DNA of 64,000 bases from Escherichia coli 042 (GTDB lineage Bacteria; Pseudomonadota; Gammaproteobacteria; Enterobacterales; Enterobacteriaceae), in the NCBI RefSeq assembly GCF_000027125.1, contig NC_017626.1. The stretch is one strand, 5' to 3'. This document shows positions 11 through 54,803 of this stretch, piece by piece; within the stretch, counting starts at the first letter, position 1, and every line of letters starts with the position of its first letter. Both the position numbers and the translations under genes were made by a program. A model generated the notes under the pieces. The model was not told where the DNA came from. It did not search any database and worked only from the letters and a program-made list of their open reading frames with translations.

Positions 11-2320
11 ATGGAGTTATGGATATTTATAGTAGCTATTTATTTGATTTATATTCTTTTTTTCAAAAAGAAGAAAACTAAGTCCGCGGGCTCTTATACT
101 TCCGCTCCTGTGAAAGCACCACCTAAAGAATGGCTTGCTAACAACAAAAAAAATCAGTCTGTAATGCAAAACGAGGACAGCGAAGATGACAATCTGGCTA
201 CGTTTACACTAAGTGGCGGGCGGAATGTCGAATACAGCATAACAGCCACTCAACGCCAGAATTTCTCAAAAACTACCGGTGCTTTGGCTCGTTGGATTTT
301 TCCGGGAGAGATGATCACAGTCAGTGGGATAGAGGTTACCGGCGGTCACTTCTATCTTGGGCAGCGTATGAAACCTGCCGGGCATAACTCAGGCGGTTAT
401 TATGATGGCAATAACGAGGCATCGCTAGTTGACGACACGCTTAAAATATACCCCACACCTTACATTTACGAAGATAGTTCATTAGGGTATTGGCCCAGTT
501 TTTCCTCACTTTCACCTGAAGCTCGTGGTGCGTACCTGAGTTGGCTTGCCAGCGACAGATGCGACACTTCCTGCCCAATTGGTTACGTTTTCATTTATCT
601 GTATGGTCTGGAAAGAAGGGCGCTTGTTGACAGCAGGGACAACAATATATCCGACGATGAGTTCTATTCTCTTTTCAAAGAGATCTGCCGTCTCAGATCG
701 GTTTTCAATGAAAACCGATCTTTCCGGAATTACTCATCCCAGTTACTTGAAGCGATGTCCATTCTTCGTCCGAACGAAAATCTTGCAGCAGCTCTCAACG
801 ATGATTCGGAGTTCAGCAATAGCATGCAGTTCAGGTTAATCCTGGCAAAGACTGTTGATACAGGAGCCCCGGTTCCAGCGGATCTGGCTCTGACGTGGGT
901 GACAAACCATGCTGAATACTCATTACGAACCCCCGCCCGCCGCTGTGCGAAAGAATTTGCTGCACTATTTAAACGGCGTTACACCCTTAAATACGGTGAA
1001 GGGATGGTAGTGAAGCCGAATAAAGCGCGTCTGCGTTTAGATTACACGCCTGCAAGTCCCAGTTTGCGAGGTATTCGGCTTCCTGTTCCCGACTTGCCTG
1101 ATCCAGGTGCATTGAAAGGCCCTGTTCAGAAGCTTATGGCCATTGCCGATATATGCACAGGTGAACTGGATGCTTACAGTCGTTACCTTGGTAGAAAAGG
1201 TACTTCAGCAAATGATACCGCTGCAATTTTGTTGCTGCCTTCAGAAATCGTTAACGAAAGCGCAGAAAAAATATTAAGTACATTCAAACACTGGGCTGAT
1301 GACGCAATCCGCAGTAAGGGTGGGATAGTTTCAGTTGCTGACTACTGGTCACATATGAATGCCACCTGTCCGGCGAAGATCAATAAAAAAGAGGCCGACT
1401 TAATGCAAGCCTTTGCACAGAAAATGGGATACTGTCTGGCTCCTGACCCCTATCACCACCACGTAAAGGCAGATGTCGATGGTGTACTTGTTTTATTCCC
1501 TGCTGGTGAAAGAGGACGTTTCTCACCTTCTCCTGAATTTATCACAGCTGTATTGACGCTCCGATTAGGTTCGGTAGTCGCCTTGATTGACAATTCTCTC
1601 GATCAAGCCGAACAGAAAGTGCTTGAGAATGCCATCAACAACAATGCCAGCTTCAGCGATGATGAAAAGCGCTCTCTGCACGCATATTTAACGTGGCAGC
1701 TTCATACTCCGGCGAATATGACGGGAATGAAAAGCCGGATTGAATTACTCGGTGCAGCGGAAAAATCAGCTGTGGGTAAGGTTATCGTTAGTGTCGCTTG
1801 CTCTGACGGCAGAATTACGCCTGCCGAAATCAAACAGCTTGAGAAGATTTATACAAGCCTGGGACTGGATCCCTCATCCGTATCAAGCAATATCCATCAG
1901 CATTCCGCAACTGAAACTGCTCTCGTTTCATCTGTACCAGCTAATCAGTCGACGGCAGGGTTTACGCTGGATGCCAACGTACTTGCCCGCCACGAATCTG
2001 CCACTGATGATGTTCGTAAATTACTGAACTCAATTTTCACTGAAGAAGAACCAGAACAACCAGAAAGCGCTCCAGCCTCATTAACCGGGGAAGGGGGACT
2101 TGACTCCGCTCATAGCCAACTTTATCGCAGGTTGCTGGAGAAAGAACAATGGTCCAGAAAAGAGGCGACAGAGTTGTGTAGTAACTGGAACCTGATGCTC
2201 GGCGGTGCGCTTGAGGTGATTAACGATTGGTCCTATGCGGTGGTTGATGCACCAGTGCTGGAAGATGCTGATGATCACATTTGGATTGACCTGGAAATAG
2301 CCAAAGAATTAGAGGGTTAG
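11..2320 (+). CDS. Large protein with N-terminal hydrophobic helix; candidate SngA-like (TerB-N/TerB-C type) first gene of a Shango-like operon
   Basis: 769-aa ORF, ATG at position 11; stop is 4 bp before the next gene start. N-terminus MELWIFIVAIYLIYILFF is a predicted TM helix. TerB domain assignment is from recalled architecture, not a computed domain hit. Confidence 0.5.
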   Translation: MELWIFIVAIYLIYILFFKKKKTKSAGSYTSAPVKAPPKEWLANNKKNQSVMQNEDSEDDNLATFTLSGGRNVEYSITATQRQNFSKTTGALARWIFPGEMITVSGIEVTGGHFYLGQRMKPAGHNSGGYYDGNNEASLVDDTLKIYPTPYIYEDSSLGYWPSFSSLSPEARGAYLSWLASDRCDTSCPIGYVFIYLYGLERRALVDSRDNNISDDEFYSLFKEICRLRSVFNENRSFRNYSSQLLEAMSILRPNENLAAALNDDSEFSNSMQFRLILAKTVDTGAPVPADLALTWVTNHAEYSLRTPARRCAKEFAALFKRRYTLKYGEGMVVKPNKARLRLDYTPASPSLRGIRLPVPDLPDPGALKGPVQKLMAIADICTGELDAYSRYLGRKGTSANDTAAILLLPSEIVNESAEKILSTFKHWADDAIRSKGGIVSVADYWSHMNATCPAKINKKEADLMQAFAQKMGYCLAPDPYHHHVKADVDGVLVLFPAGERGRFSPSPEFITAVLTLRLGSVVALIDNSLDQAEQKVLENAINNNASFSDDEKRSLHAYLTWQLHTPANMTGMKSRIELLGAAEKSAVGKVIVSVACSDGRITPAEIKQLEKIYTSLGLDPSSVSSNIHQHSATETALVSSVPANQSTAGFTLDANVLARHESATDDVRKLLNSIFTEEEPEQPESAPASLTGEGGLDSAHSQLYRRLLEKEQWSRKEATELCSNWNLMLGGALEVINDWSYAVVDAPVLEDADDHIWIDLEIAKELEG

Positions 2321-2323
2321 TGA

Positions 2324-3640
2324 ATGTCTGTAACACGTATAAGAGTGAAAGAGCGCGACGCTATCATTCAGTCACTTAAGTCGGGAGTAACGCCAAGAAT
2401 AGGTATTCAGCATATCCAGGTTGGCCGCGTGAATGAGATAACCGCCCTCCATCAGGATATTGAACGGATTGCTGATGGCGGGGCAAGCTTCAGACTTATC
2501 ATTGGTGAGTACGGTTCCGGGAAAACATTCTTTTTAAGTGTTGTACGGTCTATTGCGTTAGAGAAGAAGCTGGTCACGGTCAGTGCAGACCTTTCTCCCG
2601 ACAGACGTATCCACTCATCGGGAGGTCAGGCTCGTAATCTCTACTCAGAGCTTATGAAAAATATGTCCACCAGAAACAAACCAGATGGCAATGCATTACT
2701 TAGCGTTGTGGAAAGGTTTGTTACTGAGGCAAGGAAGGAAGCTGATGCGAACGGCTCCCTGGTCTCATCCGTTATTCATAAACGCCTTGCTGCTTTGTCA
2801 GATATGGTGGGAGGATATGACTTTGCGAAGGTCATTGACGCATTCTGGCGCGGGCATGAGCAGGATAACGAAACCTTAAAATCCAATGCTATTCGCTGGT
2901 TGCGGGGCGAGTACACCACAAAAACTGATGCCCGTAATGATCTTGACGTCCGAACGATTATCTCAGACGCCTCGTTCTATGATTCTTTGAAGTTGATGAG
3001 CCTTTTTGTCCGTCAGGCAGGCTATGCCGGACTTTTAGTTAGCCTCGACGAGATGGTGAACCTCTTCAAGTTGAATAATACGCAAGCGAGAACGGCCAAC
3101 TACGAACAAATTTTGCGGATTCTGAATGACTGCCTGCAAGGCTCCGCCGAAAATATTGGTTTTATCCTCGGGGGGACGCCAGAATTTCTTTTCGATCCAC
3201 GTAAGGGGCTCTACAGCTATGAAGCGCTCCAGTCGCGTCTGGCAGAAAACCGATTCGCACAGAAAGCTGGCGTGATTGACTACTCGTCCCCCACGCTGCA
3301 TCTTGCCAGCCTCACTCCTGAGGAACTGTATATTTTACTGAAAAACCTTCGTCATGTTTATGCTGGTGGAGATCCCGTAAATTATCTGGTGCCAGATGAT
3401 GCTCTGACCGGGTTTCTGCATCACTGCAGCAAAACCATCGGAGATGCTTACTTTCGAACTCCCCGCAATACCATAAAAGGTTTTCTGGATATGCTGGCTG
3501 TGCTGGAACAAAACAGAACGATGAACTGGCAACCCCTCATTGAGGGGGTGGCGATTGAAGAAGACAAGCTCAGCGATATGGATGATGCCATTGTGGAGGA
3601 AAGTGATGACGATGATGGCCTGGCGAATTTCAGATTATGA
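2324..3640 (+). CDS. P-loop NTPase (Walker A GEYGSGKT, Walker B-like LLVSLDEM); candidate SngB-like ATPase
   Basis: 438-aa ORF with clear Walker A motif; stop overlaps the downstream helicase start (ATGA overlap at 3637-3640), implying translational coupling. Confidence 0.6.
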   Translation: MSVTRIRVKERDAIIQSLKSGVTPRIGIQHIQVGRVNEITALHQDIERIADGGASFRLIIGEYGSGKTFFLSVVRSIALEKKLVTVSADLSPDRRIHSSGGQARNLYSELMKNMSTRNKPDGNALLSVVERFVTEARKEADANGSLVSSVIHKRLAALSDMVGGYDFAKVIDAFWRGHEQDNETLKSNAIRWLRGEYTTKTDARNDLDVRTIISDASFYDSLKLMSLFVRQAGYAGLLVSLDEMVNLFKLNNTQARTANYEQILRILNDCLQGSAENIGFILGGTPEFLFDPRKGLYSYEALQSRLAENRFAQKAGVIDYSSPTLHLASLTPEELYILLKNLRHVYAGGDPVNYLVPDDALTGFLHHCSKTIGDAYFRTPRNTIKGFLDMLAVLEQNRTMNWQPLIEGVAIEEDKLSDMDDAIVEESDDDDGLANFRL

Positions 3641-5835
3641 GTAGTGCCTACAATAGTCTTGATCCCCGTGTCCGTAAGTGGGTTTATAAGCAGGGCTGGT
3701 CATCCTTAAGGCCCTTGCAGGAAAGCTCTATTCCGGCAATTTTAGCCCGTGATCGTGATGTACTAATTAGTGCAGGTACAGCTGCGGGTAAAACAGAGGC
3801 TTTCTTTCTTCCTGCCTGTTCAGCGATTGCAGATCTCACTGGTGGATTTGGCATTATCTATATCAGTCCATTGAAGGCATTAATTAACGATCAACACCGT
3901 CGTCTTGAGAGTCTTGGTGAAGCCCTGGAAATGCAAGTGACGCCCTGGCACGGGGATGTACCACAAAGCAAAAAGAAGAAAGCACGGACAACCCCTTCTG
4001 GCATCTTACTTATCACACCTGAATCACTTGAGTCTTTGCTCATAAACTCATTGGGTTGGCTCAAACAGGCGTTTTCTTCTGTGGCATACATTGTTATTGA
4101 TGAGTTCCATGCTTTTATTGGCTCAGAGCGTGGTATACAGCTGCTTTCTCTGCTTAACAGAATTGACCATGTGCTGGGACGCCAGTTGAATCCAGTTCCC
4201 CGTGTCGCGTTGAGTGCCACACTGGGAGAGCTGGAAAAAGTACCAGAACTATTGCGCCCGGATAAGAGATTACCTTGTGAAACGGTAACAGACAGTAATA
4301 GCAAAGCCACAATACAGGTTCAGGTTAAAGGTTATCTTGAGCGGGTGCCCGAAAAAGGAAAAGAGCTCCAGAGCTCTGCTGAACAGCTCGTCTGCGCGGA
4401 TATTTTCAGGCTCTGCCGTGGCGATTCCCACCTAGTCTTTGCTAACAGTCGAAAGCGTACTGAAAGCATAGCGGCAACACTGAGCGACATGTGTGAAGCA
4501 AATGTCGTTCCTAATGAATTCTTTCCTCATCATGGTTCCCTTGCAAGGGAGTTGCGTGAGGCGCTTGAAGCCCGACTGCAGAAAGGGAATTTGCCCACAA
4601 CCGCTGTTTGTACAATGACTCTGGAGCTGGGTATTGATATTGGTAAGGTGCAGTCTGTCATACAAGTGACACCTCCGCATTCTGTTTCCAGTCTGCGTCA
4701 ACGCATGGGACGTTCAGGGCGGCGCGATTCCCCATCGGTGCTGAGAATGTTAATTACTGAACCTGAACTTACCGCAACCAGCAGCATTGTGGATCATTTA
4801 CGGCTGCAGTTGGTTCAGGCGATGGCAATGATCAGGTTGATGATCTCTAAGCGCTGGTTCGAGCCTGCAGATATCCGGCAGAAACATTACTCCACACTAC
4901 TACACCAGATCTTGGCTATTACTGCGCAATGGGGAGGTGTTCGTGCCGATCAGCTCTGGTCACAACTTTGCCAGACAGGTCCGTTCCGGAATGTGGATAT
5001 AAATGACTTCAAAAGTCTGCTTAAACATATGGGGACATGTGGCCTGCTCACTCAACTAACCAGCGGTGAAATAGTTGTCGGGGCTGAGGGGGAGAAACTG
5101 ACTAATCACTACACGTTTTATACCGTATTCAATACACCTGAGGAGTTTCGCATTGTAACGGGAAACCGAACTCTTGGCACAGTGCCTGTAGACTCCCCAC
5201 TTTTGCCGGAGCAGCACATCATCTTCGGCGGACGGCGCTGGAAAGTGACAGAGATCGAGGTTGAAAAAAAGGTTATCTATGTTGAGACGACTAAAGGCGG
5301 TCAGCCGCCACTATTCAGTGGTAGCGGGATGTCTGTTCATGATGTTGTTCGCCAGGAAATGCTCACTATCTACAGGGAAAATGATTACCGTATCGCGGTA
5401 GGCAACAAGAGAGTCGATTATGCTGATGCCGCAGCCAGAAGCCTCTTCGCGGAAGGAAGTGACAACTTCCAACGCTACAATCTACAAAATGACTGTTTTA
5501 TTGCCAGTGGTCAGAACTGCTACGTGATCCCGTGGATGGGGGATAAAATTGTCAATACAATTACGTCCCTGCTTATACGTTGTGGCTTTAAAGCCAGTTC
5601 ATTTGCAGGTGTGATAGAGGTAGAGGACTCAGGCGTTGCCTCTGTCCAGCGTGCACTTAAGAAAATGCTATTGTCGGGGCTACCTTCAGAGTTTGAGCTT
5701 GCTGCAGTTGTTCCCGACAAGTATCTGGATAAATATGACGAGTATTTACCAGAGACTTTGCTTGCTAAAGGGTATGGGGCACAGGCGTATGATATAGAAG
5801 GAACGTGCATCTGGCTGCAGAAACACCTTCAGTAG
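3637..5835 (+). CDS. DExH-box superfamily 2 helicase with ~300-aa C-terminal extension; candidate SngC-like helicase
   Basis: 732-aa ORF with Q-motif/motif I (SAGTAAGKTEAF), motif II (VIDEFHAF), motif III (LSATLG) and helicase-C motif (QRMGRSGR). Confidence 0.7.
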   Translation: MSSAYNSLDPRVRKWVYKQGWSSLRPLQESSIPAILARDRDVLISAGTAAGKTEAFFLPACSAIADLTGGFGIIYISPLKALINDQHRRLESLGEALEMQVTPWHGDVPQSKKKKARTTPSGILLITPESLESLLINSLGWLKQAFSSVAYIVIDEFHAFIGSERGIQLLSLLNRIDHVLGRQLNPVPRVALSATLGELEKVPELLRPDKRLPCETVTDSNSKATIQVQVKGYLERVPEKGKELQSSAEQLVCADIFRLCRGDSHLVFANSRKRTESIAATLSDMCEANVVPNEFFPHHGSLARELREALEARLQKGNLPTTAVCTMTLELGIDIGKVQSVIQVTPPHSVSSLRQRMGRSGRRDSPSVLRMLITEPELTATSSIVDHLRLQLVQAMAMIRLMISKRWFEPADIRQKHYSTLLHQILAITAQWGGVRADQLWSQLCQTGPFRNVDINDFKSLLKHMGTCGLLTQLTSGEIVVGAEGEKLTNHYTFYTVFNTPEEFRIVTGNRTLGTVPVDSPLLPEQHIIFGGRRWKVTEIEVEKKVIYVETTKGGQPPLFSGSGMSVHDVVRQEMLTIYRENDYRIAVGNKRVDYADAAARSLFAEGSDNFQRYNLQNDCFIASGQNCYVIPWMGDKIVNTITSLLIRCGFKASSFAGVIEVEDSGVASVQRALKKMLLSGLPSEFELAAVVPDKYLDKYDEYLPETLLAKGYGAQAYDIEGTCIWLQKHLQ

Positions 5836-5851
5836 ACTGGATATGTAGTCA

Positions 5852-5884
5852 GGGTATAAATAAGTATTTATACCCTTATTTTTT
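5852..5884. terminator. Rho-independent terminator between the convergent helicase gene and the minus-strand cassette
   Basis: Perfect 11-bp inverted repeat gggtataaata / tatttataccc with a 2-nt loop, followed by ttatttttt. Confidence 0.5.
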
Positions 5885-6206
5885 ACTTACCTGTGGACTT
5901 ACTTGGCTTTAATCCCGGAGTATTGCCAGGAGTATCTTTATTATCGCGTCGGCGTTGATCCGGTTTTCCTGTTGACTTAGCAATTGGTTTTGGACCTGGT
6001 TTTAGACCCATGATAGTTATCCTTCGAGATGTAAGAGGAATGCCCTCAACATTGGTATATTCTATACTGAGAAATTTTTCAATGGGAATGTTCAACGGCC
6101 GAATGATTAACTCGATATTGTGAGCAATGTCTTTTTTTGGCACAGAGCGAACCGTTAGATTGCGCGTATTTTTATGGAAGGAGATCATCCAATAACGGTT
6201 ATTCAC
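5883..6206 (-). CDS. Hypothetical ORF (low-complexity, Pro/Lys-rich C-terminus); possibly a gene remnant
   Basis: 107-aa ORF; 5' end region (MISFHKNT) carries one copy of a 25-bp repeat also found at 10940-10964; 3' end overlaps the terminator T-tract. Confidence 0.25.
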   Translation of the reverse strand: MNNRYWMISFHKNTRNLTVRSVPKKDIAHNIELIIRPLNIPIEKFLSIEYTNVEGIPLTSRRITIMGLKPGPKPIAKSTGKPDQRRRDNKDTPGNTPGLKPSKSTGK

Positions 6207-6270: not shown

Positions 6271-6915
6271 TTATCTTTTTGAAATCAGGACATTTACCAA
6301 CTCACTTAAAACTCTCTTTTGTTCTTCATCCTGAAGATATTGAATCCGGAATTTAATCTCTTCTGCAACCCGCCTTGTATCGGACTCATTAAGTATTTTT
6401 GTTATTCGCTGTCTCTGATGTTCAGGCTGGTCTTCCATATTTCGTAAAACCAGATGAAATAATATATCATAAAGTGCGCAATGCCATGAATAACCATCAT
6501 TGGTTAGAATAAGCTCCCAAACCCGCTCCTGTTCGGCAATAAGCTGCAGAACAAAGGATTCAACCTGTTCTGATTGTCCGGGGACAACCCGGTATAGCGG
6601 CGCAATCACAGCAAAAAACAGTTCATTTAGCCAGGATTCCGCCTCTTTCTCGCTCCTGAAAGATGGACAGTTCTGTATTCTTCGTTCGTATTCACGGGTA
6701 ACCTGCTCCGGAATATCCTCCGGCGGTGTCAGCCACTTATTCCTGAGCAATATACTGGTTGACGGATGGCAGCAGGCTATTTCAGCAATAATTTCACGTA
6801 ATGCCTCCGGGCTGAATTTCTTCAGCTGATTGTAGTGCTCCCGGGTAAAACCATGATCATCGCATAAAAGTTGCCATGTCATTGATATACTGTTTGCCAT
6901 TCCTTTCTTCATCAT
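6271..6915 (-). CDS. Hypothetical protein, last gene of the ibrAB-containing cassette
   Basis: 214-aa ORF co-directional with and 20 bp downstream of the PerC-like ORF; no family recognised by eye. Confidence 0.45.
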   Translation of the reverse strand: MMKKGMANSISMTWQLLCDDHGFTREHYNQLKKFSPEALREIIAEIACCHPSTSILLRNKWLTPPEDIPEQVTREYERRIQNCPSFRSEKEAESWLNELFFAVIAPLYRVVPGQSEQVESFVLQLIAEQERVWELILTNDGYSWHCALYDILFHLVLRNMEDQPEHQRQRITKILNESDTRRVAEEIKFRIQYLQDEEQKRVLSELVNVLISKR

Positions 6916-6935: not shown

Positions 6936-7244
6936 TCAACAGACCGGTGTACCTTTTCTGAATACCTCCCCGGACGGACTGGCAATCCCCATTCGCCTCA
7001 GCGTGGCATCTGCAGCTTTCGCCACTTCGCTGATATCCAGCTTTTCAGGTAGCGGCGGGGACGATATCTGCGCCAGGCAATAATTCCTGCGCAACAACAA
7101 CCACTCCCGTTGTGCTTCTGTACATTCAACATTTCCCATAACAAAAAGCCAGCGGGCGGAAGCTCTGCGCCAGCAACCCGCAGCCTCCAGCTTCTGTGCA
7201 ACCATGTCTTCCACGACTTCCGGGGTACTCTTTTTCCTGCTCAA
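6936..7244 (-). CDS. Small PerC-like putative transcriptional regulator
   Basis: 102-aa ORF; segment LEAAGCWRRASARWLFVM resembles the PerC/Pch family core as recalled. 40 bp downstream of the ibrB-like gene. Confidence 0.4.
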   Translation of the reverse strand: MSRKKSTPEVVEDMVAQKLEAAGCWRRASARWLFVMGNVECTEAQREWLLLRRNYCLAQISSPPLPEKLDISEVAKAADATLRRMGIASPSGEVFRKGTPVC

Positions 7245-7283: not shown

Positions 7284-7922
7284 TCAGCGAACCGTCCATG
7301 CCGGACTGAAATCCTCTTCCAGAAACAGCTCCGTCAGCCCGCTAATCTGTTTCAACCTGAGAACTTCATCCTGGTCCATACCCAGCTCCGTACCAATACG
7401 TTCATCCGTCCAGCCCAGCCGCGACAGGTCCCTGACAATATCAGACATTGAAGTTATCTGGTGCTTCCCCCTGGCCCGGTTATGTCTAATGGTTGCAGCA
7501 ATACGTGAGGCCTGTCCCTTTCTTTCCGGATTAATACAGGTCACTGGCAACCAGCCCTTCAGGCGTTTTCCCGTACCTGCTTCCCTGCCCAGTAATTGAC
7601 GATGAAAACCATCCACGACCAGATAATGCTCCTTCTCTTCCGAGACAACCACAGGCTGCGTGAACCCATCCTGCTCCAGTGAATGTTTCAGCAGTTTCTT
7701 CTCACCCGGCGCCATGACATTGGGGTTATAATCGTTGGCCACCACCTCATCTGCTTTCACCCACAGCACACAGTCCACAGGCTCCTGTGCAAATGGACTG
7801 ACCTCATGAAGCACCCTGCGCAGATGATTCAGGGCCTGTATGGCCTCTTCTTCTGGTCGTTCCTGGCTGAAGTACTGACGAATCATGTTGCTCAGTATCT
7901 CCGGTGTCACAGAATCCCCCAT
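7284..7922 (-). CDS. ibrB: ParB/Srx-fold (ParB-like nuclease domain) protein, IbrB-like
   Basis: 212-aa ORF with a ParB-like core (YLVVDGFHRQ); start overlaps the upstream ibrA-like stop by 16 bp. Confidence 0.7.
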   Translation of the reverse strand: MGDSVTPEILSNMIRQYFSQERPEEEAIQALNHLRRVLHEVSPFAQEPVDCVLWVKADEVVANDYNPNVMAPGEKKLLKHSLEQDGFTQPVVVSEEKEHYLVVDGFHRQLLGREAGTGKRLKGWLPVTCINPERKGQASRIAATIRHNRARGKHQITSMSDIVRDLSRLGWTDERIGTELGMDQDEVLRLKQISGLTELFLEEDFSPAWTVR

Positions 7923-9139
7923 TCCTTCCTCCTTTCTTTCATACGCTGCAGATAACGTTCATAGTGCCGGGGTTTGTTCGGACTGAAGGAGAGGGTACGG
8001 CACCAGAAATCATTCTTTATGAGAGTCTTACAGATACGTCGCCAGGACGGAATATCCCGGCTCCCCAAGTCATTCTCCTGTTCATCCGGGATGTCATCCG
8101 GGAAGCCCCGCGTCTGATACCAGCGCAGATAGACAGCTATCTTGTTGCGGTAATGTTCTGCCGTTCTTTCCGGCATCACATCCAGCAGAAACATCGCATA
8201 GCTGCGCCAGGTATGATGGGCTGGTTTTGATATGCGCTTACGCAGGGCAAAATAAGCCCCGCTTTCATTGGCATAAAGTGCCCCGCTGGCAGCCCCTGAC
8301 ACCCGCTCACACATCCTGGCCCAGGTTTCCGGCTCCAGAACATGGTAAAGCCACAGTCCCTTACGTTGTTCAGGACCAAAAGGTTCACAGACACGCATGT
8401 TGCGTAACGGTACGCCGGCACGGTACATCAGGTCATACAGGGGATTGTAGATGGCACGGGTTCTGGTGTGATATATCCAGATATCACGAGTTTTCCAGTC
8501 ATACAGCGGATACATGGTGTAGTAAAACCCTTCAGGCGATGCCGTGGTCCAGGGCTTATCATCGGCGTATCTCAGTTTGCGCTGGGATACCAGTCCCATG
8601 AACCGGTTAAGGGACTCATCCGCACGGACACCGGTCAGTACTGCCACACCACATTTATTGTCTGCAAACCAGGAAGAAAATGCCGGAACAAATTCTTCAA
8701 ACGTCATGGCATACCGGTAAAAGGGAAAATACGCCATATCTGTAATGGCCCCCTCCGGTGGCTGGCGAACCCACTTCACACCAGACTCCCAGCATATCCA
8801 CTCCGGCTGAAACTGAGAAACACCGTTTACCGTGGTCAGGGGAAGTGCCACCCAGTAAAAGGTTTCCGTCACATCATGGTACATTTCCCGCATCTTCTGA
8901 ATATGTTCAATGGTGCACTGGTACTGAGCCTCCCAGTCAATGAACAGTACAGAGAAACGACGTTTTTTCCTGCGGGCCACATCAGCCAAAAGATGGAAAA
9001 GCACGGTGGAATCTTTACCACCGGAAAAAGAGAGACAAACTGATGGAAATGTTTCAAAAATCCACTCAATACGAGCAATTGCTGCACGCAGAACATTCTC
9101 TCCAGTAAGGACTTTCTCCGTTAAAAAATTATCATTCAT
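7907..9139 (-). CDS. ibrA: PAPS reductase-family PP-loop ATP-pyrophosphatase-like protein, IbrA-like
   Basis: 410-aa ORF with PP-loop motif SFSGGKDST near the N-terminus; size and pairing with a ParB-like gene match the ibrA/ibrB pair. Confidence 0.75.
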   Translation of the reverse strand: MNDNFLTEKVLTGENVLRAAIARIEWIFETFPSVCLSFSGGKDSTVLFHLLADVARRKKRRFSVLFIDWEAQYQCTIEHIQKMREMYHDVTETFYWVALPLTTVNGVSQFQPEWICWESGVKWVRQPPEGAITDMAYFPFYRYAMTFEEFVPAFSSWFADNKCGVAVLTGVRADESLNRFMGLVSQRKLRYADDKPWTTASPEGFYYTMYPLYDWKTRDIWIYHTRTRAIYNPLYDLMYRAGVPLRNMRVCEPFGPEQRKGLWLYHVLEPETWARMCERVSGAASGALYANESGAYFALRKRISKPAHHTWRSYAMFLLDVMPERTAEHYRNKIAVYLRWYQTRGFPDDIPDEQENDLGSRDIPSWRRICKTLIKNDFWCRTLSFSPNKPRHYERYLQRMKERRKEWGIL

Positions 9140-9279: not shown

Positions 9280-9987
9280 TCAATAAAGAATCTTTATTGA
9301 TGATACTGGCACTGTAACAATCCCATTGAGAGAACGATTTATAACCACCCACTCATGTGGTTCAACCAACCAGGAGTTTACATGTTTTGAATCAATAAAA
9401 TCATGGCAATATAATATATCTGAAGCAGGTATATCCAACTCCAGTTTAACACGTCCGTGATATTCATCCGCATCATTAAAAGAATTCAATATATCCATCT
9501 CAAAAGAAATCACATCCTCCCCTCTTATCTCTGCTGTTTCTTTTAACTCAGCAATCGTATCTGCATACCTGCCATTAAGTTTCCTGCCTAACTGGATAGT
9601 TGTGATTTTCTTTTCGTTGCAGCATCGCTGAGTATGTTCATATATAGCCATCACTTCCTGGCAAATACAATCAACTTCTATATCACTCAAAGAATTATAT
9701 ATGTCCATAACTTTTCTCTCATAATGCAAAAAAAGATTAAATATACGATAATGAGAGAGCAAATCAGAATTTGTTACTTTCGTTAAGAATAAAGTTAATA
9801 AAACATAACCTACCTGTTTACTACCATTAAACCCAATAAAATCACTTCTCACATCTCCTTTCAATCTACCAGTTCCGATACAACGAGCTAACAATTCACT
9901 CCTGACATTATATTTACCATTCATATTCACCATACTATTCGAAACAACAGACGAACATCCAAAAGCGCTTAAACACTCCACAAACAA
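9280..9987 (-). CDS. Hypothetical protein (AT-rich gene upstream of ibrA)
   Basis: 235-aa ORF, markedly lower GC than ibrA; no recognisable motifs. Confidence 0.4.
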   Translation of the reverse strand: MFVECLSAFGCSSVVSNSMVNMNGKYNVRSELLARCIGTGRLKGDVRSDFIGFNGSKQVGYVLLTLFLTKVTNSDLLSHYRIFNLFLHYERKVMDIYNSLSDIEVDCICQEVMAIYEHTQRCCNEKKITTIQLGRKLNGRYADTIAELKETAEIRGEDVISFEMDILNSFNDADEYHGRVKLELDIPASDILYCHDFIDSKHVNSWLVEPHEWVVINRSLNGIVTVPVSSIKILY

Positions 9988-10040
9988 ACTATCTCACCGA
10001 ATAAATTGCAACACTCCCCTTACCCCACATCCTAAAGGCT

Positions 10041-10964
10041 TTATATAAAACAGTAAAAGTGAATCAGCTTAACAAATGCATCTTTCATTTGTTTTTGCTG
10101 CTGCTCGCTTCCATTCTGGTTGCGGACTTCACCATAGTGACACAACTGTTCTTCTGCCAGGATATGCCGGTTAAAAGCCTGCATGATGCCAGACACCTCC
10201 GTTTTCAGCTCACTGACCGTCATGTATTTTCCCCGCTGTTCATCCGGACGGTTCAGGCGCTCAGCCAACAGCTGTAAGCGGGTCATGCCTTCGTTCCAGC
10301 CAGTCATCGCCTCTTCCGGGAGCGCACGACTCCTTGCACTCTTCTGCCAGTTATCCACCATTTCCTGAACACGAGGATTGTCGGGGAAAAGTACCATCAG
10401 TTGCTGCAGCAATTGCACACTGCGTTGCAGGTTGTATGCCGGGGGGAATTCTGTCAGTCGCGTTATCTGCTGACCGGAAAGGGTTATCCACTCTGACGCA
10501 TGATTTAACAGTGTTCTGCTGAGCTGCATCATCTGGTCTGCTGAAAGCACATCCGGTGAGGGTGTCAGCAGCGCCCTGAGTTGCTGCTCCGCCGGTGATG
10601 GCTGTGTCAGAAACTGCCATCCCGGAATGGCCACGCAGACCGCCAGCAATGCCGTACAGACACCTGTAACAAACGTTTTCAGAAACGTGAGCGGGGATTT
10701 TTGAAGGAAGAGTGTGGGCTCTGTTTTTGTTTCAGAAACAACATACACCAGACGGGAGTGCGGCAGGGTCTGATGTTCCTGCACATCCGGAGCTTCAAGC
10801 CTGAGTGCCTGCGCCAGTAGCGTTACCGGAGACGATACTTCCCCCTGCACAGGCTGGTTCTCCAGGCGGGTGATATATCCCTTCACCATGGCTTCCGGTA
10901 AAGCCACTTTACTGCTCTGTTTAAGTTCGTGCCAAGCCTGCGTATTTTCATGGAAGGAGATCAC
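10041..10964 (-). CDS. Hypothetical membrane protein; possible C-terminal portion of a VasL-like (ImpA_N + TM) protein
   Basis: 307-aa ORF with one predicted TM segment (TFVTGVCTALLAVCVAIPGW); track start is GTG; overlaps the upstream ImpA_N-like ORF in another frame. Confidence 0.4.
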   Translation of the reverse strand: MISFHENTQAWHELKQSSKVALPEAMVKGYITRLENQPVQGEVSSPVTLLAQALRLEAPDVQEHQTLPHSRLVYVVSETKTEPTLFLQKSPLTFLKTFVTGVCTALLAVCVAIPGWQFLTQPSPAEQQLRALLTPSPDVLSADQMMQLSRTLLNHASEWITLSGQQITRLTEFPPAYNLQRSVQLLQQLMVLFPDNPRVQEMVDNWQKSARSRALPEEAMTGWNEGMTRLQLLAERLNRPDEQRGKYMTVSELKTEVSGIMQAFNRHILAEEQLCHYGEVRNQNGSEQQQKQMKDAFVKLIHFYCFI

Positions 10965-11781: not shown

Positions 11782-13569
<1,788 letters not shown>

Positions 13570-17807: not shown

Positions 17808-18002
17808 CAGAGCATTTTCTGTTACAATCTCATATGATAAAAATTAAACGGACTAGCATTGTTACTATGCGGTATGCATAAAATGATAAACGTTCGGAGG
17901 AGCCTAACTTAAACCATTACATAGGCATCATTAACAATATAAGGTTTAATTTCCACTCCCCGCAGACGAAGAAGCACTTGATGTACATCTGCCGGATCCA
18001 AA

Positions 18003-18224
18003 CTAGGATGATAATCCTATACCTGAGGGAGACATGGAGGGACTAACCGTCGCAGTCGTTGCCCATGAATGTACTTTATCACCTATATAAGCCCCTGCAA
18101 TAGAACCAAATCCCGGGCTAATAAACGTACCTGCAAGTGAACCAATAGCAATTAATTCTGCCTGCCCGTCATTCCCGTCACCTCCAGATATTTGTTTTAT
18201 TTCATTTTCAGATAGTTTTCTCAT
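18003..18224 (-). CDS. mcmA: Microcin M precursor (double-glycine leader, Ser-rich C-terminus)
   Basis: 73-aa product from internal ATG: MRKLSENEIKQISGG leader then DGNDGQAELIAIGSLAGTF...SPSGIGLSS, matching microcin M as recalled. The 133-aa track ORF is an upstream extension. Confidence 0.8.
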   Translation of the reverse strand: MRKLSENEIKQISGGDGNDGQAELIAIGSLAGTFISPGFGSIAGAYIGDKVHSWATTATVSPSMSPSGIGLSS

Positions 18225-18294
18225 TTCAACACCTTCGCTATAAAATTTGTGAAGAAGTAAAAATTCACGTTTAACCACAACGATAAAAATGTAA

Positions 18295-18441
18295 CTACAA
18301 GTGATAAAAAAACATATATAGATTAAAAAAATTATATCTATAGTAATAACTAAGATATAATGACACCGGAATATAAAAGAACAGATAATTGATAACAAAA
18401 GCAATCACTGTTATTTTTATATCCTTCTTAACCTCCCCCAT
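18295..18441 (-). CDS. Candidate small hydrophobic immunity protein (McmI-like), below the ORF-track size cutoff
   Basis: Hand translation: ATG 8 nt after aaggag gives a 48-aa ORF (MGEVKKDIKITVIAFVINYLFFYIPVSLYLSYYYRYNFFNLYMFFYHL) between the mchF stop and the mcmA start. Confidence 0.4.
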   Translation of the reverse strand: MGEVKKDIKITVIAFVINYLFFYIPVSLYLSYYYRYNFFNLYMFFYHL

Positions 18442-18476
18442 CGACAAAACTCCTTACAAAGTTACACCAGTGGATT

Positions 18477-20591
18477 TTAAATAGAAATAATCCTGTCAAC
18501 AGTTCTCAACGTAGTTTCTCTGTGTGCAATAATCACCCGGGTGATATTCATTTTTTTTATGGCAGCATTCACGAAACGTTCACTTTCTGTATCAAGAGAA
18601 CTTGTAGCCTCATCCATAAATAATATTCCAGGTTTCCGGTATAAAGCTCGGGCAATGAATATACGCTGTTTTTGACCGCCGGAAAGACCTTCCCCCAGTT
18701 CACCTATTAACGTTTCATACCCCATTGGCATTTTCATTATCACATCATGAATATGACTTGCTCTGGCACATTCTGTCATCCATTCGTCGTCTGTTTCTTC
18801 TGCAAACCCACAGATATTTTCACGAATTGATCCTGAAAATAGCCGGTCGTCCTGCATAACACAGGCTATCATACGGTGATAATTATTTATTCCAAGTTGA
18901 CGTATATCCGTGCCATTAACCAGTACTTTTCCACTATCTGGTTCAAACAGTCCACATAATACTTTCATTAATGTGGTTTTTCCGGCACCGGAGGCACCAG
19001 TTATAGCCACACTTTCTCCCGGAGCCACAGACAAATTCAGACCACTGAATACCTGTGCTGACTGGCTGTCATACCGGTAGCTTAAATCAGTGGTTTCCAG
19101 TGAAACCGGGCTCATGTCAGCAACGATTTCAATTTCCGGTTTCTTTTCTTCCTTTTCATGTAGTGCAATATCTGCAATGCGCTCATTATGCAGACTCATT
19201 ATTCTCAGTTGAAGAAGAAAACTGGTCAGCGAAGCAACCCGATCCGAAAACTGCCCACGAAAAGAACCAAATGCCACAAACATCCCTATTGTCATCTGAT
19301 TATCGATCACAAGGCTTGCACCCAGCCATAAAATCGCCACCTGATCACAGGCGGCAACAAAAGTATTTATCCCCCCGAAGAGCAAATCCATCTTGGTTAA
19401 CTTAATACCTGAATTGATCGCATCTATTTTCAGGTTAAGCCAGTGTGTTCCCCGGATCCCAGCCATACCTTGGATTTTTACCGTGGCAATACCATACAGG
19501 CTTTCCATAAAATAGGAGCTGGCCCGGGCCCCCCTGACAAGAGTTTCTTCCGATATTTGCCGGTAATAGCCGTATGTCACCAGACGAATAAGAACGTAAA
19601 CCATGGTAAAACCGAGCACTATCCAGGTAAGATATCCTCCATATAACAGCATCATCACAAAAACACCCACAACCATAATACTGTCCATGATTGCCCCAAC
19701 CACACAGGTGGTAAAGGTGGCCCTCAAAGTGTCAAGGGAGCCAAAACGCGACTGGATATCACCTAATTTACGGCGTTCAAAAAACGCCAGCGGCAGTCTG
19801 AGAAGATGGTTAAACAGACCCGACTGCCACTGTATATTGATGAGCGTGCTCATAACCAGTGAGGACCATGCACGCAGCATACTCACCGCGGCCCTGAGCA
19901 ATATAAAGAACATCAGGCCAGCAGAAATAAGCGTCAGCAGCCCTCTGTCCCCCGCCGGAATCGCATGATCCATAACCAGCTGAGTCCCCACCGGCATTAC
20001 CAGATTGATTGCTTCAATTACAACTGACAGACAGAAAATTTTCGCCAGTGTTCTTTTAATACCGTAAATACTGTTAATCAGTGAACGGAGACTTATGCGG
20101 ATCTGCTGGGTTTCCGCCAGGAATTCACTTCCAGGCCAGACCTCAAGTGCAATGCCCGTAAAATACCGGCTCATTTCCTCCCGACCGAGATATCTTCTGC
20201 CTCTGGCCGGATCATGCAGTACATAACGGTTACGCTTTACGCTGACCAGCACGACAAAGTGACTGAAATCCCAGTGGAGAATACACGGCATTTTGAGGGC
20301 ACCAAGTTCATCCAGCTCCAGTGAAAGAGCCCGGGTGACCATCCCCAGCTGCTCCGCTATTCCATTGATTCCTGCAAGGTTTGCTCCACGGGCCGAGAGA
20401 TTAAACTTCCGGCGAAGAGATATCAGGTCAATATTCTTACCAAAATGACCGCATATCATTGCCAGGCAGGCCAGTCCACATTCAGCGGTCTCCGTCTGAT
20501 GAATAACCGGAACACGACGTCGCCAGCGCATATCAAGCTGATTTATAATTTGTCTGAAACTCCCGTTAGTCATTGAGCGGTCCTGTTGCAC
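18477..20591 (-). CDS. mchF: Microcin ABC exporter with N-terminal C39 peptidase domain (CvaB-like)
   Basis: 704-aa ORF; C39 motif around [18 protein letters not shown], six-TM region, C-terminal ABC ATPase ([17 protein letters not shown]). Confidence 0.9.
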
Positions 20592-21840
20592 TGTGTTTCA
20601 TGTCATAGAAAGGAGAAAGCATCCACTGGTAAATACGCCTTTTTTCCAGAAATAGTGTACTTTCGGCTTTCATTCCATTTTCCAGAGGGAGGTATTTTTC
20701 GTCATATCTGATAATCTGCTTTTCAGGCATCGCAATGACTTTATACCAGGGAACAGAGGCGCCCGGCGTATTCTGTGGTGCACCCTTATAGGTCAACATT
20801 TCCTGTGTTGACGCAGGAGTCCTGGATATAGTTTTAACCGTAGCAGAGAACTGCCCAAATTTTTCTGCCGGAAAGGCTTCATAACGAATATTCACTTTGT
20901 CACCAGCCGAAATATAAGGAACAGCATCATTTGGGACCCAGAGAATAAGATAATAGTTTTCAATGTTCTCAGGAATAACCTGCAGAAGGCTGTCTCCGGT
21001 ATTGACCATTTGCCCGACAGTGACACTCAGGGAGTCAACTTTCCCGTCAGTCAACGCCCGGATAATAATTTCGCCCTCCACATCAGTGTTAACCAGTTCT
21101 TTCTGTAACTCGTACCGTTGCAGTTCCATCTGGTAGATACGGTTATCAAAATCTGCAGCCTGAGTCTGAATCTGACTCTCCAGAGTGGTTATCTGCAGGG
21201 CATTCTGTTCGTTCTGTCCGCTCAGGCTGAGAAGATTGTTTTGTTGCTGATAATATAATGCCACCTGGTTAGTTAACTGATCTTTATTAATCAGCCCTTT
21301 TGCCTGATAGTTTCTGTAATTCTCCATATTGTTTTTCATTATTTTTATCCCTTCCTCTGCACGCTGTATAATATCTGATGAGCGACGAAACGCATCTGTG
21401 TATTGCAGACGTTGTTTTTCCAGGGTATCTAACGTTATTTTTTTACTTTCTTCCAGACGGGAAATAATGTTGTCCACACGAACCAGCTGATTTTCTATAT
21501 CCCGCCGATGATTATCAGTGACAATACCACTACGTGTACTTTTACTGATGTCAATCAGATAAACAGGATCCCCTTTTTTTATCAACTGCCCTTCATGAAC
21601 AAATTGCCTGACAACAAATCCCTGTACACCTGAATATATATTGACAGCTCTTGGCCAGGTTGTGACCTCACCACTGACATTAACACGGCGGCTATAGGTA
21701 CCAACAATAATGAACATCAGAAATGCCGTAATAAACACAATGCTTCCCAGCATGATTAACCATAGTGGTATTCCGGGAAGTAATATTGCCCGTCCCTGCC
21801 ACTTCATTTTTCTGTTTTCTAAAGCATCCTGACGAAACAA
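20566..21840 (-). CDS. mchE: HlyD/CvaA-family membrane fusion protein for microcin export
   Basis: 424-aa ORF with N-terminal TM and coiled-coil-rich periplasmic region; overlaps mchF start. Confidence 0.85.
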
Positions 21841-21992
21841 AATAGCTCCTCTTACTCACACTTTTCCTGTAATACCTTCACTGATTAACCGAAACGCTAT
21901 AATCAAAGCCAGAAAATACAGAGTCCTGTCAAAATAGTATCAGCGATGCATTTACCCCGTAATTTACAATTATCTCTGTATCTTCAGAGGTA

Positions 21993-22445
21993 CTACGTTT
22001 TATGCAGCCGCTCAGGGATGTATGTCACAATTTTCTTTCGCCTGCTTAACCATCGTACTTCTCCTTCCCCCCATGGCTGAAGCTGTATGAGATAGTCAAT
22101 AACTTTTCGACCAAAGCCTGGTTTACAACAGAAATCCAGGATCCAGATCCTTCCATCTTCATTCCATTCAGACGGATGCAACCTGAATTCTGGATCCCTG
22201 AGCAGGCGCGCTTCCGTATCAGCCTCAAGATATGCCCAGGTTATATACGCCAGTGGAAAACCTCGTGAATCAAACAGGAATTTAATCTGATTATGCTGTA
22301 TCGCATATTCAGTCCAGTATTGAATGGTTAACACCGGATACAGACTGTAATTACGATTGTAGAGCATACAACTGACCGCAAAACCTATCTGTTCATAAAC
22401 AGTCCATTCATCTTTTCCTCTGATGGTTTCCCTTATATAAGACAT
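21993..22445 (-). CDS. mchD: HlyC-like acyltransferase-family protein (microcin maturation, MchD/MceI-like)
   Basis: 150-aa ORF at the position and size expected for mchD in the mchCDEF operon. Confidence 0.65.
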   Translation of the reverse strand: MSYIRETIRGKDEWTVYEQIGFAVSCMLYNRNYSLYPVLTIQYWTEYAIQHNQIKFLFDSRGFPLAYITWAYLEADTEARLLRDPEFRLHPSEWNEDGRIWILDFCCKPGFGRKVIDYLIQLQPWGEGEVRWLSRRKKIVTYIPERLHKT

Positions 22446-22470
22446 GATTACTATTTCCCTTATATATTTA

Positions 22471-24021
22471 TTACACTGTGTTTCTTATCGGTTCAAGATA
22501 TCCAAATGCATCTCTGGAAAACTTAAGCATAAAATTTTTCATATCAGAAATTGCTTCTTGTAAAAAAAGGGGATCATCGCCATGATTATCCAGCAGGATG
22601 GCAATTTTTTCGCACATATTCTCTTTCCTCAGCTCTTCCCTGGGTTGCAGCCTTTTCATGGTATGATGTTCAATTTCTTTCAGGAGTAATGAAGCATTTA
22701 TCTGACGTCTGGTACTGCCTTGCGTCAGCCAGTGGATAGTCTGGGAAAAACACTGTTGTGCAACGGTGAAATAAACATCATTCTTGATGCTACTATTCAG
22801 TGCCTGCTTTTGATTATGCCTATGATGGATTAGCGTCACAACCAACTTTTGCAATGGTGAACCATCCTGATTGACAATATCTTGGGCATGTGATTTCTCG
22901 CAGTATTTATTGAGTAATGCAACAAAACTGTTAACCAGTTGTTTCAATATATCAGGTATCTCTTTTTGTGTTATAAATTCTCCAGGAATACCCAACAGTT
23001 CTAGATAACAGTAATAACATGCTTCATGAAAAGTTTTCTGAAATATCTCCTCAACCTTCAAACGGGCTGCAAGAGTGAAGTCAGGGTCAAACATATATTT
23101 TCCGATATACAAGCAGAGATCAGACAGCCCTTGCATAAGTACCATCGGTTCTTTTGCCAGTTCAGCTAATCTTAGTTTATACCCAAAATCAGCTGGGGAA
23201 TCTCCCGGAAACAGACAACTGAGTCCGTTAAAATCCATTAATCTGCCATCCATTGCAATATTAGAAGGAGAAGTTGTCAATCTCAGGAAACGTGTTCGAC
23301 AAAATGCCATTTGCCAGGCCTCACGACGTGCCAGTTCACATAATCCCTCAATGCAATAAATCCGGGGATCAGTTCGTGCTTCAGCATCAATTTCTTCCGG
23401 TGGTACAGGTAGATATCCTGGCAGCTTGTGGATCACAGATCTAACCCGACAGGCATCGTGAATTAACTGACTGGAATACTCCGGTTTTACTTGGAAGTAT
23501 GGTGCCCGTTCAAAATGCGCCGGGCGAACAACAGGCTCACGTACCAACAGGGCTCTTCGTGATTTCATACCGGAGCGCTCAAATGCCTTTTCAGTATAGA
23601 GATCTGTAAGTAAAACCGCCCGAACCCGCACAGCACTATAAGGTAATATTTGAGCCAGTACTTCTCCCCACAAAGCCTCATATATTGCATGAACAGCGCC
23701 GAGTGCACCATTAGAATGACGTTCGTCAGTACCTTCACCAACCAACGGATTACTTCCTATTCCTTTAACCTGGTAGTTACCATCAAACCCACAACGTGCA
23801 CCACCTCCATTACGCTGAATACCACTGCCACCATAGCGCTCTGCATGGAACACTTTGGCAGAAGCCGTACTGTCAGGATCGATAATATAACTGCAGGCAT
23901 TTTGCAGCTCGCCTGGATTTCTGACATCCTCTGCACACCAGATTAATGAGGACTTGATCTGCCTGGCAGTGAAAGGCACCAGGTTTTCATTCAGTTCAGA
24001 AAGTGAACACTGATGACTCAT
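22471..24021 (-). CDS. mchC: Microcin maturation protein (MchC/MceJ-like)
   Basis: 516-aa ORF immediately upstream of mchD, matching the mchC size and position. Confidence 0.65.
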   Translation of the reverse strand: MSHQCSLSELNENLVPFTARQIKSSLIWCAEDVRNPGELQNACSYIIDPDSTASAKVFHAERYGGSGIQRNGGGARCGFDGNYQVKGIGSNPLVGEGTDERHSNGALGAVHAIYEALWGEVLAQILPYSAVRVRAVLLTDLYTEKAFERSGMKSRRALLVREPVVRPAHFERAPYFQVKPEYSSQLIHDACRVRSVIHKLPGYLPVPPEEIDAEARTDPRIYCIEGLCELARREAWQMAFCRTRFLRLTTSPSNIAMDGRLMDFNGLSCLFPGDSPADFGYKLRLAELAKEPMVLMQGLSDLCLYIGKYMFDPDFTLAARLKVEEIFQKTFHEACYYCYLELLGIPGEFITQKEIPDILKQLVNSFVALLNKYCEKSHAQDIVNQDGSPLQKLVVTLIHHRHNQKQALNSSIKNDVYFTVAQQCFSQTIHWLTQGSTRRQINASLLLKEIEHHTMKRLQPREELRKENMCEKIAILLDNHGDDPLFLQEAISDMKNFMLKFSRDAFGYLEPIRNTV

Positions 24022-24291
24022 CTGGCAGTATTCTCCGTTTTAATTTTCATAAAAGAGTGTTCATAAAAGAGCAAGTAAGTGTCCTGACAGCTTCTTCCTT
24101 ATTACAGTAAAACTCTATTAATTACACATAAATTAATAATTATTTATCAACGACTGTAAATCATATCTTCATCAGTAAAGTGTTGAACATAAAAACACAC
24201 TTATAAATGGATCTTCTATCTGCTTTAAACGAAAGGGATATATTTTACAGGCACTATCGAAAAAGTGCCTGTAAAATAAATAAAATTATAA

Positions 24292-24519: not shown

Positions 24520-24535
24520 ATAAACTCCATCATAT

Positions 24536-25402: not shown

Positions 25403-25556
25403 CAAACATATTTGCAAACTGATACCTGATCAGGTACAAGCCTGTTGATTATTATGCTGAATATTCCAGTTATCAATCCATCGATATGAACATTAACAAG
25501 AAAAAACATATATTGTTTATCTGAATATTTATCGATGGAAAACCAAAGGGGAAAGT

Positions 25557-25991: not shown

Positions 25992-26007
25992 GCAGGAGGT
26001 TTTTAAA

Positions 26008-54794: not shown

Positions 54795-54803
54795 GGAGTT
54801 GAG

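Follow-up and report, generated by a model that had tools for sequence, protein, structure and literature searches.

[quoted passage not shown] Millman et al. (2022) validated the Shango of Escherichia coli KTE113 (construct SG206) as anti-phage and found that its three genes with their native flanks sufficed, and Johnson et al. (2023) showed anti-phage activity for the Shango of Pseudomonas aeruginosa PA14 (PA14_RS11735-11745), which likewise combines a TerB-like protein with an ATPase and a DEAD/DEAH helicase. The protection reported for Shango in E. coli is modest, at about 10-fold against two phages, and in some strains the islands that carry it also carry the antiplasmid system ApsAB. Our search of the literature to mid-2026 for the mechanism or structure of Shango yielded only catalogue and survey papers; the mechanism is still unpublished, in agreement with a first-pass annotation of this locus.

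Components related to those of Shango occur in other defence systems. Type 2 BREX (Pgl) contains BrxD and BrxHI, which a 2026 comparative study found to be tightly linked and for which it proposed that BrxD serves as loader or activator of the helicase. A TerB domain is present in Bunzi (BnzA) and Dionysus (DinB), and a role in membrane surveillance has been proposed for it there.

Assignment of the locus to Shango

The window (the whole stretch of 64,000 nucleotides of E. coli 042 DNA that was analysed) begins 10 bp upstream of sngA, as had been noted earlier, and sngA, sngB and sngC follow one another in that order, adjacent and on one strand (Table 1). The PADLOC SngA profile matched SngA at E = 8.6e-100, the SngB profile matched SngB at E = 3.8e-186 over profile positions 1-439 of 439, and the SngC profile matched SngC at E = 1.2e-277 over profile positions 3-719 of 720. 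For each protein the best PADLOC family was the corresponding Shango component with other families far behind, and placement of the operon in a different family, an outcome that the first-pass annotation had allowed for, is refuted.

KTE113 Shango comes from the same species and has the same gene order and the same protein lengths (Table 1). Compared across residues 1-399 of each protein, the portion given in the supplement of Millman et al., SngA was 92.0%, SngB 98.7% and SngC 97.2% identical to its KTE113 counterpart; KTE113 Shango is nonetheless a different allele, and the differences fall mostly in SngA, especially in residues 94-165. The locus is almost certainly a complete E. coli anti-phage operon, sngA-sngB-sngC, borne on a genomic island that was gained by horizontal transfer, and the assignment to Shango that had been made from protein sizes and gene order is borne out by the PADLOC matches and by near-identity with the validated allele. 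As a near-identical allele of KTE113 Shango, the window allele is itself predicted to be active against phage. Its setting differs from that of PA14 Shango, which lies in the core chromosomal defence hotspot cDHS1, whereas the locus described here is on an integrase-bearing island. As a finding the locus adds little, since the system has a name and catalogue entries, a near-identical allele has been tested, and ~8% of complete E. coli genomes carry it.

Table 1. Coordinates of the sngABC operon, of the domains encoded by sngA, and of the downstream flank (positions in the window).
Feature	Position	Strand	Description and evidence
sngA	11-2320	+	769 aa, ATG start; ORF, PADLOC SngA, Pfam, AlphaFold
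Predicted single transmembrane helix (codons)	14-64	+	SngA residues 2-18, then KKKK
TerB_N domain (codons)	302-937	+	SngA residues 98-309; Pfam 5e-48
Central TerB domain (codons)	1565-1882	+	SngA residues 519-624; Pfam 9.9e-06
TerB_C domain (codons)	1940-2314	+	SngA residues 644-768; Pfam 3.3e-27
sngB	2324-3640	+	438 aa, ATG start; BrxD-like ORC/Cdc6-type AAA+ ATPase; PADLOC, Pfam, motifs
sngC	3637-5835	+	732 aa, ATG start; DExH superfamily-2 helicase, Lhr-core architecture
Intrinsic-terminator-like hairpin and T-run	5851-5885	+	Closes the sngABC operon
ORF convergent with sngC	5883-6206	-	Hairpin/T-run sits between this ORF and sngC

Kinship of SngB and SngC with BrxD, BrxHI and Lhr

The Walker A/B ATPase and the DExH helicase that had been read from the second and third genes were both recovered, and all catalytic motifs of the two proteins are intact as judged from their sequences. 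SngB carries Walker A GEYGSGKT (residues 61-68, coded at 2504-2527) and Walker B LLVSLDE (residues 237-243, coded at 3032-3052) and has an acidic C-terminal tail, and SngC carries motif I GTAAGKT (residues 47-53, coded at 3775-3795), motif II DEFH (residues 155-158, coded at 4099-4110), motif III SAT (residues 193-195) and motif VI QRMGRSGR (residues 355-362). In Pfam, SngB matched BrxC_BrxD at 5.9e-150 and AAA_16 at 8.4e-06; in PADLOC, SngB matched BrxD at 1.5e-44 and SngC matched BrxHI at 3.1e-115, each over its full length. These matches make SngB and SngC homologous along their whole length to BrxD and BrxHI of type 2 BREX, a pair that likewise consists of an ORC/Cdc6-type AAA+ ATPase and an SF2 helicase encoded by linked genes, the BrxHI-type helicase having winged-helix, beta-barrel and Lhr-like C-terminal domains as SngC does. 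Shango differs from type 2 BREX in combining its pair with a TerB-type protein and in lacking PglZ, PglX, BrxC and PglW.

The C-terminal half of SngC (coded at about 4786-5832) corresponds to an Lhr-like winged-helix region plus domain 4, and the entire SngC model superimposes on Lhr. SngC shows similarity to two repair helicases, Lhr and MrfA, and its predicted fold is that of an Lhr-core enzyme, an analogy drawn through modelled structure at 22% sequence identity (to Mycobacterium smegmatis Lhr, PDB 5v9x, and MrfA/YprA, PDB 6znp). Unlike SngC, however, Lhr and MrfA function in repair and have neither a TerB nor a BrxD partner. The Pfam content of the three Shango proteins was confined to TerB-type, BrxC_BrxD/AAA and helicase domains. 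Pfam searches of SngA, SngB and SngC and the structural comparison of SngC revealed no nuclease, NADase, toxin or other killing domain, and the invariant residues of the C-terminal half of SngC contained no recognisable nuclease motif; the absence of an effector domain is negative evidence only.

Domains, anchor and variability of SngA

A search for TerB-N and TerB-C in the first protein had been set beforehand as a test by which the Shango reading could be refuted, and TerB_N, TerB and TerB_C were all found (Table 1). SngA runs from a predicted N-terminal membrane helix through a disordered tether to TerB_N, a middle region, TerB and TerB_C, and its AlphaFold model has a mean pLDDT of 87. The TerB domain is what SngA has in common with BnzA and DinB, but Bunzi and Dionysus lack the TerB_N/TerB_C frame, and their partners are membrane or pore-forming proteins whereas those of Shango are an ATPase and a helicase. 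Nor does the locus qualify as a ter operon, in which TerB is a standalone protein of ~150 aa accompanied by ter neighbours, whereas here it is embedded in the 769-aa SngA. A profile built from 93 SngA relatives matched the TerB-like structures 2h5n (8.1e-06) and 2jxu (0.12) in the PDB and nothing else notable, and the PDB yielded no solved relatives of SngA or SngB by sequence search at E <= 0.1.

The first protein had been described as membrane-anchored; its 769-aa length and its hydrophobic N-terminal helix hold, while the anchor itself is a prediction. No other 19-residue stretch of SngA is as hydrophobic as residues 1-19 (Kyte-Doolittle 2.07), KKKK comes directly after them, and in the AlphaFold model residues 2-18 are helical and residues 20-61 and 70-79 fall below pLDDT 50. 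SngA is predicted to be anchored in the membrane by this one helix on a disordered tether of ~70 residues, and the bulk of the protein would be cytoplasmic, because the KKKK after the predicted helix invokes the positive-inside rule. An N-terminal hydrophobic segment is present in 61 of 93 diverse SngA relatives and missing from about a third, one E. coli allele has a frameshift at sngA codon 3 and is without the membrane anchor, and among 20 long relatives a DNA-binding module takes the place of the membrane helix in a few (HHH_5 in 3/20, HARE-HTH in 1/20).

SngA is the fast-evolving partner of the three Shango proteins. Its most variable folded region is residues 94-165, the beta-rich first part of TerB_N, for which identity among 103 enterobacterial SngA homologues was 0.605 as against 0.72-0.78 for the other folded parts, and dN was 0.08 as against 0.006-0.03 elsewhere. 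Positive selection on this region was considered and rejected, the maximum pairwise dN/dS of 0.38 indicating variability and not diversifying selection; dS was uneven along sngA, which suggests recombination.

Distribution, selection and genomic setting

Several complete RefSeq E. coli genomes contain DNA 100% identical to the locus, and 442 of 5426 genomes (~8% of complete E. coli genomes) carry 80% or more of it. For sngA, sngB and sngC, dN/dS was 0.05-0.20 in two allele comparisons, and all three genes are under purifying selection. Other alleles adjoin GIY-YIG, NACHT and HsdR genes, a defence-island context. In one relative, although its SngA shares only 34% identity, the genes still run sngA, brxD-like gene, helicase and their stop and start codons overlap, and SngB aligned over its full length with the SngB of that distant relative, most positions being identical or similar.

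Proposed mechanism and alternatives

Our best inference is that anchored SngA directs an SngB-loaded 3'-5' translocase onto phage DNA. SngA would be held at the inner membrane by its N-terminal helix and a flexible linker of ~70 residues, and its TerB_N/TerB/TerB_C body would act as sensor and scaffold and, as the fast-evolving partner, would bear the specificity. SngB, as a BrxD-type ORC/Cdc6 AAA+ ATPase, would spend ATP on loading or activating SngC; the latter, a DExH enzyme with an Lhr core, may translocate 3'-5' on single-stranded DNA as Lhr does. The target of SngC would be entering or replicating phage DNA, whose replication and recombination intermediates would be unwound or stripped, and the outcome would be blunted phage replication with no host suicide; since none of the components has a recognisable nuclease or toxin, any destruction of DNA would proceed via host nucleases. 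The most specific form of this proposal, in which SngA serves as an adaptor tethered to the inner membrane and keeps an Lhr-like 3'-5' DNA translocase, loaded in BrxD fashion, at this site of phage DNA entry, residues 94-165 set the phage range, and interference is by a nuclease-free motor in Shango and BrxD-BrxHI alike, is tentative and of low probability. Because Shango and type 2 BREX share the ATPase-helicase pair, solving one system would probably explain the other, and the intact window allele lends itself to clean tests through three features, namely the single predicted membrane helix with its disordered tether, a variable SngA subdomain and a BrxD/BrxHI-type pair.

Shango could also act by abortive infection, with SngA as the sensor and SngB/SngC hitting host DNA or draining ATP, or with SngA damaging the membrane, such that the cell dies or arrests before phage release. 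The membrane surveillance proposed for TerB-type systems, the predicted membrane helix of SngA and the lack of a self/non-self marker such as a methyltransferase are consistent with this, but the hydrophobic helix of SngA is its only one, the protein lacks a pore-forming or toxin domain, and a search of all components for killing domains such as nucleases or NADases found none; we consider abortive infection rather unlikely. That Shango is directed in nature chiefly at plasmids or other mobile elements, serving competition between elements more than defence against lytic phages, seems improbable given its documented anti-phage activity, although its location on mobile islands, which in some strains also hold ApsAB, the weakness of the phage protection reported in E. 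coli, and the 14 places matching the locus that are on plasmids all point that way.

Two further readings draw on the names and relatives of the proteins. SngA is called 'tellurite resistance TerB family protein' in RefSeq, SngC is similar to repair helicases, and Anantharaman et al. (2012) are cited as having tied Ter domains to DNA processing, all of which would suit a module devoted mainly to housekeeping stress responses or DNA repair, either a 'DNA-processing' complex of the Ter type or a repair helicase akin to Lhr, with only incidental phage defence. We regard such a module as very improbable: the locus is confined to a small minority of complete E. coli genomes, Shango islands vary in context and have other defence genes adjacent, no terZACDEF genes are annotated nearby in an identical genome, SngC scored 238.8 bits against a cutoff of 850 and 194.1 bits against a cutoff of 849 for the Lhr/ligase-associated DExH helicase equivalogs TIGR04121 and NF010338, respectively, and direct tests in two species have shown that Shango protects against phage. 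The full-length matches of SngB to BrxD and of SngC to BrxHI, and the Pfam placement of SngB in BrxC_BrxD, might alternatively mark the locus as a remnant or accessory piece of type 2 BREX that is not autonomous. This we hold to be scarcely credible, as the annotation of an identical genome has no PglZ, PglX, BrxC or PglW in the counterpart of the 64-kb window or in the preceding 12 kb, SngB scored 146.7 bits against a cutoff of 350 for the BrxD equivalog NF033438, the three genes alone with their native flanks conferred defence, and the three-gene order recurs in distant taxa. The BREX-remnant and ter-operon readings were both rejected because of gene content.

Junctions and ends of the operon

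The sngA stop codon (TAG, 2318-2320) is followed by TGA and then by the sngB ATG at 2324, and therefore the sngA/sngB gap is 3 bp and not the 4 bp first given, whereas the ATGA overlap described for sngB and sngC is present at 3637-3640. Downstream, an 11-bp stem at 5851-5876 is followed by TATTTTTT; the hairpin and T-run of the terminator are thus where they had been placed, but their stability is moderate and not strong (just 3 of the 11 stem pairs are G-C; -15 kcal/mol for the 60-nt fold, z = -2.2). An identical genome has an in-frame TAA 5 codons before the sngA ATG, so that the ATG at position 11 is the first possible start, and the RefSeq annotation uses the same start codon. No sigma-70 site emerged from a consensus scan of the 228-bp upstream region in that genome, where the one match lies inside sngA. 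A block of ~50 bp, ~100 bp upstream of sngA, is common to this locus and the KTE113 clone.

Identity and layout of the Shango operon

The first-pass annotation had likened the three genes at the start of the window to the Shango anti-phage system. PADLOC placed the Shango families first for each protein (E-values of 8.6e-100 for SngA, 3.8e-186 for SngB and 1.2e-277 for SngC), with the next family far behind in every case, and Pfam found both TerB_N and TerB_C in SngA. Protein sizes and gene order also bore out the comparison: the experimentally validated allele of E. coli KTE113 (construct SG206; Millman et al., bioRxiv 10.1101/2022.05.11.491447) encodes proteins of 769, 438 and 732 aa, exactly the lengths seen here, and over the first 399 residues of each, the portion compared, SngA, SngB and SngC were 92.0%, 98.7% and 97.2% identical to it. 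The same system was found independently in P. aeruginosa PA14, where it protects against phage (Johnson et al., PMC10250203). Because of these profile matches, the likeness to KTE113 and the PA14 report, we take the earlier finding to have identified a known system correctly, and there is very little doubt that the locus is a Shango operon; judged by sequence, its allele is almost identical to the validated one.

The genes lie in one direction, as described (Table). Since the sngA stop codon TAG and then TGA directly precede the sngB ATG, the gap between these genes is 3 bp rather than the 4 bp reported, the one exception to an otherwise right observation and interpretation; the ATGA overlap of sngB and sngC was present. 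The window does begin 10 bp 5' of sngA; a genome with 100% identity has a TAA in frame five codons 5' of the start, and the RefSeq annotation uses this same ATG. The supposedly strong terminator proved to be a terminator-like, AT-rich hairpin of only moderate stability (-15 kcal/mol in a 60-nt fold, z = -2.2). A convergent 107-aa hypothetical ORF stops just beyond it and had no PADLOC match.

Table. Features of the window (positions in nucleotides unless marked as residues)
Feature	Position	Strand	Description
sngA	11-2320	+	769 aa, ATG start
TerB_N	SngA residues 98-309		Pfam
TerB	SngA residues 519-624		Pfam
TerB_C	SngA residues 644-768		Pfam
sngB	2324-3640	+	438 aa, ATG start
SngB tail	3590-3637 (residues 423-438)		EESDDDDGLANFRL
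sngA stop	2318-2320	+	TAG
sngC	3637-5835	+	732 aa, ATG start
Terminator hairpin	5851-5876	+	11-bp stem, then TATTTTTT; operon 3' end
Hypothetical ORF	5883-6206	-	107 aa
Hypothetical ORF	6271-6915	-	214 aa
PerC-family regulator	6936-7244	-
IbrB-like	7284-7922	-	ParB-like
IbrA-like	7907-9139	-	PAPS reductase
Gene fragments	~9280-10964	-	Type VI secretion (VasL domain, ImpA N-terminal), ShlB/FhaC remnant
NERD + UvrD-type helicase	11782-13569	-	595 aa; RefSeq "3'-5' exonuclease"
Microcin H47/colicin V-type cluster	~18000-28000		mchB, mchI, mchS3, HlyD-family, mchF exporter
IS30 and IS600 copies	~35200-37400, 44900-49700
CP4-57-type island end	after IS30/IS600		YfjP GTPase, DUF932, antirestriction protein, RadC, YeeU/CbtA toxin-antitoxin, DUF4942
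Group 2 capsule (kps) locus	~49710-64000
kpsF/E/D/U/C/S-type genes	50855-58850
WcbI-family acetyltransferase	58959-60551
Hypothetical ORF	60780-63917		>1045 aa

SngB and SngC

The motifs of the Walker A/B ATPase and DExH helicase recognized earlier are intact in SngB (GEYGSGKT, 61-68; LLVSLDE, 237-243) and SngC (GTAAGKT, 47-53; DEFH, 155-158; SAT, 193-195; QRMGRSGR, 355-362). Pfam assigned BrxC_BrxD (5.9e-150) and AAA_16 to SngB and DEAD and Helicase_C to SngC; a PDB sequence search with SngB gave no match. The C-terminus of SngB is an acidic tail whose last residues are hydrophobic and whose DD-x-L-x-x-F-x-L pattern is retained in one distant homologue; the tail, which we take to resemble the C-terminal docking peptide of SSB, could bind a partner.

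SngB aligned over its full length with BrxD of type 2 BREX (Pgl), yet scored 146.7 bits against an equivalog cutoff of 350, and the alignment of SngC with BrxHI (3.1e-115) was likewise full-length. BrxD is an ORC/Cdc6 AAA+ ATPase, and BrxHI belongs to the SF2 helicases and has winged-helix, beta-barrel and Lhr-like C-terminal domains; their genes form a tightly linked pair, in which BrxD has been suggested to load or activate BrxHI (2026 comparative analysis, PMC12839542). Because of this full-length homology to a linked pair, Shango can be read as a BrxD-BrxHI-type pair joined to a TerB-type protein.

SngA and selection on the operon

The prediction of a membrane anchor in SngA agrees with its most hydrophobic stretch (residues 1-19, followed by KKKK) and with a structure model built from 93 diverse relatives (mean pLDDT 87, pTM 0.71), which has a helix at 2-18, is disordered at 20-61 and 70-79 and shows a large confident fold from ~94 to 769. 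By the positive-inside rule, which places the body on the cytoplasmic side, the body of SngA would be cytoplasmic. Since the hydrophobic segment occurs in 61 of the 93 relatives, and among 20 long relatives this region instead carries HHH_5 in three, HARE-HTH in one and SH3_3 in one, the N-terminus looks like an exchangeable module for localisation to membrane or DNA. Most of the 1767 cluster representatives in the family (E <= 1e-30) match residues ~93 to 767.

Pairwise dN/dS values of 0.19-0.20 for sngA, 0.05-0.11 for sngB and 0.12 for sngC show purifying selection on each of the three genes. Across Enterobacterales SngA is about 75-81% identical versus 85-89% for SngC, and by these identities SngA is the variable partner. 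In a relative with a 34% identical SngA, a brxD-like gene and then the helicase gene still follow sngA, with stop and start codons that overlap, and its SngB is alignable end to end with that of the window, most positions being identical or similar. The least conserved folded part of SngA is residues 94-165 (identity 0.605 vs 0.72-0.78 elsewhere); because dN/dS there never exceeded 0.38, we do not claim positive selection.

Proposed mechanism

The mechanism was described earlier as still unknown, and we likewise found none published for Shango in the literature covered, which ran to mid-2026; how TerB proteins protect was still unclear in a September 2025 preprint. Membrane-anchored SngA may sense or scaffold, and SngB would load or activate SngC. 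By analogy with Lhr, for which the 3'-5' direction is established, SngC would be a 3'-5' DNA translocase, and the motor would disrupt phage DNA intermediates. This specific four-step scheme is tentative, with somewhat less than an even chance of holding; direct interference is favoured over abortive infection, and the mechanism is probably common to Shango and to BrxD and BrxHI of type 2 BREX. The remaining value of the locus is as an entry point to this mechanism.

Distribution and genomic context

The operon DNA was 100% identical over 6 kb to E. coli JE86-ST05, JE86-ST02 and BEC1-S17-ESBL-09. Of 5426 complete genomes, 442 contained at least 80% of the query and 823 matched some of it; full-length alleles fell into classes of about 99.7-100%, 97% and 95% identity. 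Some strains carry an IS1-disrupted sngA and many only a 3' sngC remnant (the last 800-900 bp or so) adjoining IS3-family elements, so Shango is often lost or decayed in E. coli. The operon of the identical genome is part of an island and sits 3' of an integrase remnant; other E. coli alleles have as neighbours either GIY-YIG nuclease and NACHT genes or an HsdR-type restriction gene. Neither BREX core genes nor ter genes were found near the operon.

A probable second defence gene is the NERD/UvrD-type one, which lies 6 kb from Shango (PADLOC candidate family C3a187, 4.5e-140; several GajB models weaker). The IbrB-like and IbrA-like genes overlap, with the PerC-family regulator and the 214-aa ORF downstream; the PAPS reductase weakly matched BrxP (2.6e-07) and DndC (2.4e-04). 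The type VI secretion and ShlB/FhaC fragments appear in the annotation of the matching genome as partial genes or pseudogenes, and the microcin cluster was read from the annotation of a 99.75% identical JE86-ST05 region. The window diverges from JE86-ST05 at ~49710 and carries the capsule locus from that point on; the kps genes are followed by a low-GC (28-35%) serotype-specific region holding the acetyltransferase and the long hypothetical ORF, and at least 80% of the 49710-64000 stretch is held by only 13 complete E. coli genomes.
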